From the NCBI GenBank assembly GCA_047514575.1, contig JAKZYH010000197.1, forward strand, positions 1 through 54,842: a DNA stretch of 54,842 nucleotides, written 5' to 3'. The DNA is from Acidobacteriota bacterium. GTDB taxonomy: Bacteria; Acidobacteriota; UBA6911; RPQK01; JAJDTT01. Below the pieces are notes generated by a model. It searched no databases, was not told where the DNA came from, and saw only the letters and a program-made list of their open reading frames with translations. Positions 18,524 to 23,105 of the stretch are shown in pieces. The translations under genes were made by a program, and so were the position numbers. How positions within the stretch are numbered: the first letter of the stretch is position 1; each line of letters begins with the position of its first letter.

Positions 18524-19573
18524 CTAGTTGAGTAGCCCTTTCTCCCGCACGAGCTCGGCGTTGAGAATGGAGGCTCCAGCCGCTCCCCGAATCGTATTGT
18601 GTCCCAGGACAACGTACTTGATGTCCAGAACTGAGCAGGGACGGGTGCGTCCTACCAGGGAGCTCATGCCCCCATACTTCCAGACGTCTAGCCGCGGCTG
18701 CGGACGGTTATTGTCTCGAAATACGACGACCGGATCCCGAGGAGCCGAAGGTAGATTGAGCTCCTGTGGAGGGCCTCTGAACTCCTCCCACGTGGCAATG
18801 ACATCCTCTACCGAAGCCTTCGTCCTGAGGCGCAGGGAAACGCACTCCAGATGACCTTCTTCGACAGACACCCGGTTGGCCTGGGCGCTTACGGTAAACT
18901 CAGCGGGGCTAAAGGAGCCATTCTCCAGGTCCCCTAGCATTTTCTGGGTTTCTGTCTCGATCTTGTCTTCCTCTCCTGAGATAAAAGGGAGTACATTGCC
19001 CAGGATGTCGAGCGACGGAACACCGGGGTAGCCAGCGCCGGAGATTGCTTGAAAAGTCACGACCTGGACCAGCTCAAGCCCGAATCGCCGGTGCAGCGGG
19101 CCGAGGCTTAGGGCGAGAACGATGGACGAGCAATTGGCGTTGCTGACCAGAGCACCGCTCCAGTCGTGGTTCTTACGCTGCCTTGGAATAATGTCCAGGT
19201 GATCGGTATTGAGTTCCGGGATGAGGAGCGGAACATCCGGGTCCATCCGGTGATTCCTCGCATTCGAGAAGACCCAGTATCCTTTGCTTGCAAAATCGGT
19301 CTCAACTTCGCCGGCTACCGAAGAGTCCAAGCCGGAGAAAACGATGGGGCAGTCCAGGTTGGCTTCGCACTTCCTCACCTCGAGTGCCGAGGCTGCCTCA
19401 GGCATGGGAGCTCCCTGTTTCCAGGAAACGATATCCCCGTAGCGATGACCCGCCGACCGCTCGGATGCCGCCAGTTCCCGAAGCTCGAACCAGGGATGGT
19501 CGGCAAGCAGCAGCACGAATTTCTGACCTACTGCTCCCGTAGCTCCCAAAACGCCTACCGGTATCCTGCTCAC
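18524..19573 (-). CDS. asd: aspartate-semialdehyde dehydrogenase
   Basis: GVLGATGAVGQ NAD motif and active-site SNANCSS. Start is set at GTG 19573 (AGGAGA upstream), giving about 350 aa. Confidence 0.9.
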   Translation of the reverse strand: MSRIPVGVLGATGAVGQKFVLLLADHPWFELRELAASERSAGHRYGDIVSWKQGAPMPEAASALEVRKCEANLDCPIVFSGLDSSVAGEVETDFASKGYWVFSNARNHRMDPDVPLLIPELNTDHLDIIPRQRKNHDWSGALVSNANCSSIVLALSLGPLHRRFGLELVQVVTFQAISGAGYPGVPSLDILGNVLPFISGEEDKIETETQKMLGDLENGSFSPAEFTVSAQANRVSVEEGHLECVSLRLRTKASVEDVIATWEEFRGPPQELNLPSAPRDPVVVFRDNNRPQPRLDVWKYGGMSSLVGRTRPCSVLDIKYVVLGHNTIRGAAGASILNAELVREKGLLN

Positions 19574-20648
19574 AATTCTCCTCTTGGTTGAGTCTATTGC
19601 CTCAGGGCTCACCCGCTCATGCGAGCTCCTGGCACTAGAAGGGAAGCAGGTAAGATCGACCAACCCCCTCGTGGAACACGCGACTATAACATCGGGGGCG
19701 CCGCCTATGGAAGGCAGCCGAGCTCTCTGGCGATTGCGATTGGGGATGTATCGGAGGGAAAAACCAACCTTTTCGTGCTTCGCCTAAAAGGACGAAGGAA
19801 AAAAATGTCCCAAGTGATATTCACAGCTTCCCGCGCACCCTCAAGAGTGGTCTCTCCCGATCCGAATCGGACCAGTTTCTCCACTCATGCGGGCGAACCC
19901 CGGTTGCCCCGAAATCGGCTTACCCCCTAGGAGGGTTCGCTTTTCCCCGGGCGCGAGGTCCCTTGCCTATCAGGCTCGTCTCTTTCCAGGCTCCTCGGAT
20001 AACCGTCTCACCTGGCCAGGGAATCTTGCCCGACCGACAACCGCTTGTCCCGAAGCAACCAGGTCACAAACCTAGTAGCCTTGCCCGAAGGCATCGTCCA
20101 CTCTGTCTGCTCCCCGTAAAGGAGCCACACCAGCTTACGCTAGTGCTTGAACCCGCCCCATGCTCGCCGTCCGCTGTGCTTCCTGGCCGAAGCCCCTCAG
20201 CCGCTTCTAACAAGCATCCGGTGCCGCCTCGGGATGTCCACTGTGTCTACCCCTTGGGACAAGGAGAATTGTATCCCGCTGGTGAGCTTGAACAAGGAGA
20301 AAAAGTCGAAAAATGTCGCGCACAGTCTTTGTGCGAATAGAGGTATTCGGGTTATCTGTCGGCAATATCGTTCGTTCGCGAACTATTCTCACAGCTTATC
20401 CACAGTTTCTTCCACACCGCTTGAAGAGGAACTCTACCCTCCGTTCTCCAGATCCTGCTTTTGCAATTGTTTTTTTCATCGATTTGGCCGGTATCCGAAC
20501 CCACTTTTTTACGAGCTGATCTCGGGAGTGTGAGTGCTTTGGCGGATCTTACGGGGGCCATTGCCGATTCAGTCCTGCGACCGTCCCATGGCACTCCGGT
20601 GAAGGATCCTAGCGGAAACCCGAGACCCGCAACACCACCAGGTCAATA
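19574..20648 (-). ncRNA. candidate structured RNA or decayed locus (unclassified), ORF-free gap
   Basis: 1,075 nt without a credible ORF. The minus strand reads G-rich with nested helices (8 bp: 19893-19900/19933-19940; 6 bp: 19845-19850/19881-19886) and C(UUCG)G-type tetraloop hairpins (20082-20093, 20186-20195). Confidence 0.3.
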
Positions 20649-23105
20649 TCAGAAGTTGGCGATCTGCTGTGATCTGGGCGGGATGGGGTCTTTGGGAATG
20701 TGTGAGGTCGGATTGTCTTTATTCGGCCAACGCACTTTTTCCAGCACCCGGGTCACGTCGTTCAGCCTGAGAGGCTTCGTCAACACGGCGCTGAAACCAT
20801 GGTCCTCATATCTGGCCATCACGGGATCACTGGAATAACCACTGGACACGATGGCTCTAACGGTAGGATCGATCGCCAGCAGTTCCTGGATTGCTTCTTT
20901 TCCCCCCATTCCGCCCGGAATGGTCAGATCCATGATGACTGCGTCGAAGCTGAGCCCCTGCTCCAGGGTCTCCCGATAAAGAGCAATTGCCTCCACCCCG
21001 TCTCTGGCGAAAGATACGTCGTAGCCAAGCTCTTTCAAGAGCTCTCCCAAGGCTTCCCTGATCATATCCTCGTCATCCATCACCAGGATGCGGCCCTCTC
21101 CAACCGGTCCCAACTCTTCCGTGGCGGGGAGTGGCTGGTCCTGCTCGATCTGGGCGACCGTATTCTCAGACGCGGGCACGTAGAACGTGAACTCCGTCCC
21201 TGCGTCTACTTCGCTTTCCACCGAGATGTATCCGCCGTGACGTTGAATAATGGAATAGGTGCCGGCAAGCCCAAGTCCGTGGCCCTCTTCTTTGGTGGTG
21301 AAGTAAGGGTCGAAGATGCGAGGGAGGATGTCGGCAGGGATTCCAATGCCTTCGTCTTCGACGGAGATCTTGACATAGCGTCCGGAGGCCAATTCTCCCA
21401 CTCTGTTCTGACTCGTCATGTGAACGTTTCCGGCGAGAAGGGTGATGGTGCCTCCCTGAGGCATGGCTTGCTCTGCATTGATGACCAGATTGTTGATTAC
21501 CTGGTTGATCTGACCCGGATCAATCTCAGCAGTCCAGAGGTCGTCCTCGATGAGGCAGTTGCACTTGATCTTCGATCCCCGCAACACGAAACGTGTGGAT
21601 TCTTCCAACAACTGGCTGATCGATGCCGACTTGGTGATGGGTGCTCCGCCCTTGGCGAATGTGAGGAGTTGATGGGTCAAGGTGGTAGCAAGTTGGGTAG
21701 CCTCCTCAATGCTGGAAAAGTGTTGCGAAGGGTCATCCCCCCTCGCCCAATTCCGCCGGGCCAACTGGGTCTTCAGGACGATTCCGGTCAGAATGTTGTT
21801 GAAGTCGTGTGCAATGCCTCCGGCCAGGACGCCAAGTGACTCCAACTTCTGACCCTTCAGCAGTTCCTCTTCCATGCTGAGCTGGTCGGTAATGTCACGA
21901 AATACGAGTACGACGCCTAGGGTGGCTCCACTCTGATCGCGTATCGGAGCGCCCGTCAGCGAGATGCGTCTCCTGGTCCCGTCGCTGGAGATGATGGTCG
22001 TCTCCTCGGTATCCAGTGAGAGGACCACTCCCTTTTTGAGGACCTGTGCCACCGTGTCTTCGCAGGGCTGCAGCGTCCTTCCGTTGATTGCATGGAAGAC
22101 CTCTTTAAGCGGGTGACCGGCGGCCTTCACCTGTCTCCAGCCGGTGAGGTCCTCCGCTACCTGGTTCAAGAGCGAGATCCTTCCCGAAGTATCGGTGGTG
22201 ATTACACCATCTCCGATACTACGCAGTGTAACCGTGAGACGCTCCTTTTCTTCTGCCAGCTCGTTGGTGCGCTCCTGAACCCTGGTTTCCAGCTCTTCCT
22301 TGGCTTTCTTAAGGGCTTTCTCTGCCACAATCTTCTTGTCCAACAGCTGGTTGACTTCGTCGAGGTGTTGCTGAGTCTGGTTGATACGCTGCCGATTCAT
22401 CTTGTAGGCGTAATAGAGCAGCAAGATGATGGGTGATGCGATGGCGAGGCCATATAGCTCGAAGCGTCCAAAGTAGACGAAGACCAGACCACCCAGGCAG
22501 GCGCCTGCCACGTGGGTTAGCGAAGCCCAGACGAAGTTGCGTTTCCACAAATCCAAGAGGGGCTGTCCGGTCACGGAAGAGATCGCCACAGCGACCATAG
22601 AGGTGTTGAGGCCGAAGTAAAGCAGCCCGGCGGCTCCAACCTTGGCCATCAAGAGGGTCACATCCTGGATTTCGCTGGGGTCCAAAGGCGCGGTTCTGTT
22701 CTCGAAAAAGTAGAAACCCGAACCGACGATGTAAGCAGCCAGAGCCAGTTGGTTGGTGTTGAAGAGCTGCTTGTAGAGGTGCTTGATCTTAGCCCTGAAG
22801 TTGGTGGTCACCCCCTCACAGACAGCGACGACCGCCGCAATCTCGGGTCCATAGAGGAGAATTGCTGCGAAAATAAACACGTCACTTACGGTGACTGACA
22901 AAGACTCCTTCTCCCCCTTGACGAGCGGGATGACGACAGGAAAGTAACTTCCCCAGGCTGCTACGGCAGCCAGGAAGATCCAGTTTAGATTCGGATGTTG
23001 AAGGGAGTGGACCAAACAGACGCCGATGAGGGGTAGACCCGCAAGCACCACAGTCAGGATATAGACCCTGGCTCTGAGTGGTAGGGGGTCAACAAAGAAT
23101 TTCAT
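20649..23105 (-). CDS. hybrid sensor histidine kinase / response regulator (membrane N-domain, coiled coil, PAS, HisKA, HATPase_c, REC)
   Basis: 818 aa. About 8 hydrophobic segments, a PAS-like segment (TLRSIGDGVITTD...VFRDIT), H-box GGIAHDFNNIL, N/G boxes (NLVINAEQAM, DEGIGI, GHGLGL), and C-terminal REC (ILVMDDE...VIMDLTIPGGMGG). Confidence 0.9.
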   Translation of the reverse strand: MKFFVDPLPLRARVYILTVVLAGLPLIGVCLVHSLQHPNLNWIFLAAVAAWGSYFPVVIPLVKGEKESLSVTVSDVFIFAAILLYGPEIAAVVAVCEGVTTNFRAKIKHLYKQLFNTNQLALAAYIVGSGFYFFENRTAPLDPSEIQDVTLLMAKVGAAGLLYFGLNTSMVAVAISSVTGQPLLDLWKRNFVWASLTHVAGACLGGLVFVYFGRFELYGLAIASPIILLLYYAYKMNRQRINQTQQHLDEVNQLLDKKIVAEKALKKAKEELETRVQERTNELAEEKERLTVTLRSIGDGVITTDTSGRISLLNQVAEDLTGWRQVKAAGHPLKEVFHAINGRTLQPCEDTVAQVLKKGVVLSLDTEETTIISSDGTRRRISLTGAPIRDQSGATLGVVLVFRDITDQLSMEEELLKGQKLESLGVLAGGIAHDFNNILTGIVLKTQLARRNWARGDDPSQHFSSIEEATQLATTLTHQLLTFAKGGAPITKSASISQLLEESTRFVLRGSKIKCNCLIEDDLWTAEIDPGQINQVINNLVINAEQAMPQGGTITLLAGNVHMTSQNRVGELASGRYVKISVEDEGIGIPADILPRIFDPYFTTKEEGHGLGLAGTYSIIQRHGGYISVESEVDAGTEFTFYVPASENTVAQIEQDQPLPATEELGPVGEGRILVMDDEDMIREALGELLKELGYDVSFARDGVEAIALYRETLEQGLSFDAVIMDLTIPGGMGGKEAIQELLAIDPTVRAIVSSGYSSDPVMARYEDHGFSAVLTKPLRLNDVTRVLEKVRWPNKDNPTSHIPKDPIPPRSQQIANF

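Follow-up and report, generated by a model that had tools for sequence, protein, structure and literature searches.

Bacterial RNA classes that exceed 400 nucleotides (nt) and have solid covariation are, to our knowledge, rare, and each of them has so far led to unexpected biology. OLE, GOLLD, ROOL, HEARO/omega RNA, and raiA are of this kind: they are multi-domain, covary strongly, are restricted to certain lineages, and lie in neighbourhoods that do not reveal their function. In all these respects they resemble the RNA described here. The DNA analysed, which we call the window, is a 54,842-nt stretch (contig JAKZYH010000197.1 of assembly GCA_047514575.1) from an Acidobacteriota bacterium of the UBA6911 lineage, and its source (G000) is a metagenome-assembled genome (MAG) of 819 contigs that is 89.9% complete. 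On the minus strand, between the gene of a hybrid histidine kinase and asd, positions 20,260 to 19,807 are probably an independent gene for a stable and highly structured non-coding RNA of an uncatalogued family, which would act in trans as a ribonucleoprotein (RNP) scaffold.

Despite the likeness to the large orphan RNAs, no covariance model of any of them matched. The present RNA occurs in Acidobacteriota and not in Firmicutes or phages, has no viral copies, carries its own predicted promoter and terminator, and has its conservation centred on the terminal stem. Against Rfam 15 (4,227 models), it matched nothing at the gathering threshold, where a tRNA-Phe was the only match of the window; at E ≤ 10, the RNA region gave one chance match of 11 bits. 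ARAGORN found no transfer-messenger RNA (tmRNA) in the window, only the distant tRNA-Phe. An initial annotation, made from the sequence alone, had reported no signature of RNase P, tmRNA, signal recognition particle (SRP) RNA, group II intron, or L-box, and had asked for an Rfam search; once run, it returned no family for the RNA region at either threshold. A housekeeping identity was rejected, with RNase P RNA, 6S RNA, SRP RNA, and tmRNA located at other loci in the source genome or its relatives. In the literature searched, no paper reports an RNA for the UBA6911 lineage. The RNA is new at the level of the RNA family; we do not claim novelty for its mechanism.

Y RNA and YrlA (RF00019 and RF02553), which bind Ro60/Rsr, also have a conserved stem between the 5′ and 3′ ends, a variable remainder, and a U-run that follows, and a mini form of our RNA is of Y RNA size. 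Human Y RNAs have the ends 5′ GGUCCGAAGGUAG and 3′ CACUUGACUAG, which resemble GUCCCAAGGGGUAG and CACUUGGGACA of this RNA. However, the bulged C is missing from the stem found here, which pairs perfectly over 8 bp, and the main form is four to five times longer. Ro60/TROVE (PF05731) was absent from all 61 related genomes searched, whereas the Deinococcus and Bacteroides controls were matched. With no Ro60/TROVE gene in these relatives and no Rfam match, the Y RNA reading was rejected.

Two further comparisons concern 6S-like RNAs and elements of lysine metabolism. Like 6S and Ms1, this RNA appears to be stable, with paired ends, a rod-like mini form, and paralogues, but a canonical 6S RNA lies elsewhere in these genomes and this RNA has no central bubble. 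The asd RNA motif of Lactobacillales (RF01732) and the lysine riboswitch (RF00168) are often found upstream of asd or lysC as well. Neither matches at E ≤ 10, and this RNA is much larger, with many copies that are not near asd.

Conserved ends and structure of the RNA

All copies begin with 5′ GUCCCAAG(G/A)GGU(A/G) and end with (A/C)(U/C)AUCACUUGGG(A/G)C 3′, followed by 1–2 nt and a T-run. In the predicted fold, these ends form a terminal rod, P1a-P1b-P1c, that closes four domains (Table 1). The sole change in the 3′ strand of P1a is A to G opposite U2 (a U-G wobble), seen in three families; otherwise P1a is unchanged, in the large and the mini forms. P1b lies between two bulged nucleotides (G20252 and A19815) and an internal GA/AA loop, and its fourth pair varies by lineage, from A-U to G-C to U-A/U-G. 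Outside the terminal stem, the only sequence conserved across all 49 homologues consists of short motifs: CCNGAGGC, the UUCG loops, GAAAC, and GGRAGAG.

Table 1. Positions of the RNA gene, its parts, its upstream elements, and the flanking genes in the window
Feature	Position	Strand	Remarks
RNA gene, mature length 454 nt	20260->19807	minus	5′ GUCCCAAGGGGUAGAC ... GAAUAUCACUUGGGAC 3′; from homologues and fold; no Rfam match
P1a, 5′ strand GUCCCAAG	20253..20260	minus	identical in every homologue; pairs with 19807-19814
P1a, 3′ strand CUUGGGAC	19807..19814	minus	directly precedes A19806 and U7
P1b, 5′ strand GGUA	20248..20251	minus	pairs with UAUC 19816-19819
P1b, 3′ strand UAUC	19816..19819	minus	pairs with GGUA 20248-20251
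P1c, 5′ strand CACAGU	20240..20245	minus	pairs with GCUGUG at 19822-19827; compensatory G-C to A-U changes
Domain I	20048..20234	minus	helices 2-8 of alignment A1, with compensatory changes
Domain II, long irregular hairpin	19963..20040	minus	A1 helices 9-12; 9/15 pairs compensatory
Domain III, hairpin including ACCCUC/GGGGGU	19893..19967	minus	A1 helices 13-16; 10/16 pairs compensatory
Domain IV: helix a GAGUGG/CCACUC, internal loop AGAAAC / GGGAGAGA, helix b CUGGUCC/GGAUCGG	19844..19886	minus	13/15 pairs compensatory
A and U7 tail, terminator-like, directly after P1	19799..19806 (A19806, U7 19799-19805)	minus	7-8 T here in 37/49 homologues
Predicted -10 hexamer TACAAT	20268..20273	minus	48-sequence upstream stack
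Predicted -35 TTGTTC with T-tract ahead	20290..20303	minus	48-sequence upstream stack
Inverted repeat GCACA-N5-UGUGC (GCACAAAGACUGUGC hairpin), then T-run, upstream of -35	20319..20335	minus	most lineages
Phased direct repeats TGTGGAAGAAAC-TGTGGATAAGC-TGTGA	20389..20416	minus	kept in all lineages including mini forms
Hybrid histidine kinase ORF	20649..23105	minus	domains MASE9-PAS-HisKA-HATPase-REC
asd ORF	end at 18524; listed start TTG 19663	minus	GTG 19573 most likely start

The body of the RNA evolves by compensatory changes, whereas the terminal stem is invariant. Orthologues, paralogues, and copies from the sister genus, 20 sequences in all with 53–60% identity between groups, were aligned with plain MAFFT, and RNAalifold gave a consensus of 105 pairs for this alignment (A1), 45 of them with compensatory changes. 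Paired cells made up 94.4% of the total vs. 36–49% when partners were slid, cells with double changes numbered 229 vs. 27–48, and none of the 500 shuffles reached the observed score. An independent set of 11 sequences from family f7 gave 137 pairs (38 compensatory) and 94.9% of cells paired, vs. 37–53% with slid partners. For domain IV, the covariation was assessed on 35 sequences from at least eight families. The single-sequence minimum free energy (MFE) was −216 kcal/mol (z = −5.5).

Conservation follows the RNA and not the gap as a whole. Among five orthologues, identity per 30-nt bin was 0.76–0.98 in the RNA, 0.66–0.80 at the ends of the flanking genes, and 0.52–0.63 in the spacer. That the minus strand is the sense strand, as first proposed, agrees with a conservation above that of the flanking genes and with covariation as RNA. 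Conservation and covariation in relatives, which the initial annotation had suggested looking for, were both found. The RNA is confined to 19,807–20,260, and the remaining gap is its predicted promoter and upstream module together with the putative asd promoter and leader. The earlier proposal of a large structured RNA holds in its nature, given the covariation, the fold z-score, and the RNA’s own predicted promoter and U-run, but not in its size, which is 454 nt instead of 1.07 kb.

The particular helices first pointed out fared differently. The UUCG hairpins at 20,082–20,093 and 20,186–20,195 are real and conserved, and the GAGUGG/CCACUC helix within 19,830–19,893 is real and supported by covariation. 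GCUCC-7 nt-GGAGC is present at 20,109–20,125, has an equivalent hairpin in other lineages, and is plausible. The 8-bp GCGAACCC/GGGUUCGC helix does have its complement in the sequence but lies outside both the MFE and the consensus folds and competes with covarying helices. In domain I, P2 (20,223–20,234 with 20,048–20,059) closes three hairpins at about 20,157–20,221, 20,122–20,154, and 20,060–20,116, whose loops are UUCG or GNRA. Support for P2 comes from family f1 alone; the f7 prediction instead pairs the 5′ segment CCUGAGGC with a region close to the 3′ end and not with the central part of the RNA.

A non-functional origin, as a repeat or mobile element or as a decayed protein gene, is extremely unlikely on these data. 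The genome does hold two copies, and the ends do form a terminal inverted repeat, as an element could be expected to show. But each genome has only one or two copies, synteny of the locus extends to the other five genomes of the genus, viral contigs yielded no copy, and compensatory changes preserve the RNA helices. As for a decayed gene, there was no Pfam match and no three-base periodicity of variable sites (43/48/62, p = 0.13), in a comparison for which the flanking-coding controls were too short to inform.

Predicted promoter and upstream repeats

We stacked 48 upstream regions, ungapped, on the first G of the RNA. A −10 element, TAnAnT, appeared with T at −13 in 94% of the sequences, A at −12 in 96%, A at −10 in 92%, and T at −8 in 96%. 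TTG occupied −35 to −33 in 98, 79, and 81% of them, and T occurred at −43 to −40 in 69–94%. Conserved at a constant spacing from the first G, these elements suggest a sigma-70-type promoter that would drive the RNA. An own promoter and terminator could be recognised across 48–49 homologues, on sequence only. At the other end, the long-range P1 helix together with the U-run would both end transcription and shield the two ends of the RNA.

Farther upstream, the inverted repeat ahead of the −35 element may be a terminator that insulates the gene, or else a palindrome to which a dimeric factor binds; in the sister genus (g2), another inverted repeat occupies this position. The direct repeats beyond it may be specific to this RNA gene: in the three genomes with a match (G000, G001, and G029), the motif TGTGGAWAANNTGTGA was found solely upstream of copies of the RNA. 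Such dedicated repeats would point to control by a specific regulator.

A reading of these repeats as DnaA boxes was not supported. TGTGGATAA is a perfect DnaA box, yet TTATCCACA is not enriched in these genomes. It is not clustered near dnaA of G006 either, and no DnaA-box cluster was found within 10 kb around dnaA.

The RNA could also act in trans as a decoy that titrates a global factor, as 6S, Ms1, and CsrB do, instead of serving one dedicated protein as its scaffold. The stable rod whose ends are paired, independent duplications in several lineages, and a promoter that appears strong and regulated would suit this. So would the location 119–161 kb from dnaA in the five complete genomes of the sister genus (G006–G010), which is origin-proximal if oriC lies near dnaA; because the five genomes are of one genus, this distance counts as a single observation. 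We nevertheless consider a decoy unlikely. These genomes already have a canonical 6S RNA, the fold has no large central bubble, and the hairpin loops are UUCG or GNRA and not repeated binding motifs of the GGA type.

Homologues, mini forms, and possible role

The homologue set comprised 49 unique sequences of 387–695 nt. Each of the other five genomes in the genus has an orthologue at the syntenic locus, with 79–85% identity to the window’s RNA in the three compared. The source genome has a paralogue on another contig (C170:5372-5825; L002 1134-1576, minus) that is 443 nt long and 60% identical; it has the same architecture and upstream repeats, and lies between genes for an ABC-transporter ATPase and a membrane protein. 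A second locus with end-block matches, which correspond to the paralogue, was present in each of these five genomes too; the full paralogue was extracted from four of them, and the 3′ part alone from G002. In the sister genus, all nine genomes had one or two copies. Family f6 has larger versions (637–695 nt).

Several searches delimited the distribution. A scan for the 3′ motif, with one genome per species, gave 52 loci; those that also had the 5′ motif were all Acidobacteriota MAGs, including the genus mate Acidobacteria bacterium UBA6911, and matches in other phyla lacked the 5′ motif and were as numerous as expected by chance. Within the order, the 3′ motif (at most one mismatch) was present in 54 of 76 genomes and the reversed control pattern in none, and among 401 genomes of the phylum it occurred inside this order only. 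A covariance model of domain IV and the 3′ end (91 positions) raised the count to 68 of the 76 genomes, with one or two copies each. It added family f14, whose copies end in ...ACAUCACUUGGGGC and are full RNAs of 450–452 nt. Viral contigs gave 12 chance matches, none with the 5′ motif, and no viral copy was found; a phage origin was rejected since all these matches lacked that motif.

In a sister order (family f106), the same model matched four of five genomes, and the RNA is only 119–121 nt long. These mini forms have the same P1a, a P1b of GGUU/AAUC, and a single rod that ends in a domain-IV-like loop and hairpin. Two of them (L153:1018-1136, minus, and L156:1529-1649, plus, in genomes G449 and G451) share the invariant ends, the promoter layout, and upstream CTGTGGAAAA repeats with the large form; their fold z-scores are −5.0 and −5.9, and they have no Rfam match. 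The mini-form pattern was found in none of the 401 genomes of the phylum. Of the large form, they have kept just the terminal stem and, from domain IV, the loop AGAAAC / GGRAGAG. Because of this, the functional core is likely to be the terminal stem plus domain IV, with domains I–III as an expansion of about 330 nt.

We propose that the RNA would work as follows. The domain-IV loop and the invariant stem, bulges and GA/AA loop included, would together offer a sequence-specific platform for a protein to bind; the RNA would act in trans as an RNP scaffold; and domains I–III would be a lineage-specific expansion. In a more specific version, which we regard as possible though on balance doubtful, the terminal stem and domain-IV loop would be the RNA subunit of an unrecognised RNP or ribozyme of one class of uncultured Acidobacteriota. 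It would follow a logic like that of Y RNA or SRP but without Ro, come in a minimal 120-nt form and in expanded 390–700-nt forms, and be controlled by a dedicated transcription factor that binds the TGTGGA repeats.

Taken by itself, a ribozyme that has the conserved terminal stem and domain IV as the seat of catalysis is highly improbable. The size and multi-domain build resemble those of large ribozymes, and a small conserved core sits within a variable periphery. However, conservation extends to very few nucleotides in single strands, the RNA matches no model of a known ribozyme, and the mini form is a simple rod.

The neighbouring genes raise another alternative, namely that the asd-lysC-dap operon has the RNA as its cis-acting leader, a riboswitch or attenuator of giant size in which a ligand-dependent P1 beside the U-run would decide on read-on into asd. 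In five families (f1, copy A; f16, f7, f8, and f11), asd does follow the RNA directly and on its strand, the RNA of the sister genus is upstream of lysC, and a P1 helix followed by a U-run resembles an expression platform. But this upstream placement holds for five to six families only, whereas the C170 paralogue and the copies in f6, f9, f12, f13, f10, f2, f14, and f106 adjoin unrelated or convergent genes. Where asd or lysC follows, the distance varies from 92 to 1,042 nt, and asd has a conserved promoter-like block of its own (19,661–19,720). Moreover, riboswitches show the opposite of the pattern seen here, where the junctions vary and the stem does not, and no lysine or other riboswitch matched in Rfam. 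A cis-acting leader is therefore very unlikely, and the linkage to asd reads as inherited gene order.

Other arrangements were seen at these loci. In G028 and G019, where the motif was lacking, a protein gene lies upstream of asd and the RNA copies are elsewhere. The orthologous locus of G004 (L005) has about 160 extra nt between the RNA and asd, so that asd starts 399 nt after the RNA vs. 234–238 nt in the others. A second recurrent neighbourhood appears in L148 and L150 (f14) and L020 (f6), where the RNA adjoins a divergent gene for a class II fumarate hydratase.

Some points weigh against an independent gene for an RNP scaffold, which we still consider the probable explanation. The RNA gene and its transcript ends are predicted here from sequence data, and a strict consensus promoter scan called no promoter for the RNA; it misses this one because the −35 element is TTGTTC. 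That the ends are invariant could in some measure be due to constraints that act on the DNA, near the promoter and at the terminator, instead of to protein binding. The junction topology (P2) differs between the predictions for f1 and f7. No neighbouring gene is conserved across the copies, and no partner protein was identified. Finally, the RNA was not found in 8 of the 76 genomes of the order, because of which it is probably dispensable.

The acidobacterial order concerned is abundant and uncultured. In it, the RNA is near-universal and has cleanly defined ends, and a natural minimal form points to the functional core. At the level of annotation, more than 100 genomes carry this unannotated RNA gene at a place where gene callers may put spurious antisense open reading frames (ORFs).

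The gap and its flanking genes

The gap between the hybrid kinase ORF and asd was first described as 1.07 kb and measures 1,075 nt (19,574–20,648). As described, its plus strand is open in all three phases, with overlapping ORFs, and its minus strand has only two short ones (20,207–20,392 and 20,352–20,594); none of the six gap ORFs had a Pfam match. The minus strand is also G-rich, as reported: the plus strand of the gap is C-rich, with a GC skew down to −0.2, and the RNA contains 37.7% G.

The start of asd is most likely GTG 19573 and not the listed TTG: in the longer ORF from TTG, the Pfam domains are not reached until residue 36, and alignments made to relatives by tblastn begin with residue 1 of the 349-aa form. 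Upstream of asd, the 60-nt block at 19,661–19,720 (minus strand) shows 89–95% identity among five species of the genus, which exceeds that of asd itself. It contains a −10-like element, TGTTATAGT, and a CCCCCG...CGAGGGGG hairpin, has no Rfam match, and may be the asd promoter together with a small leader element.
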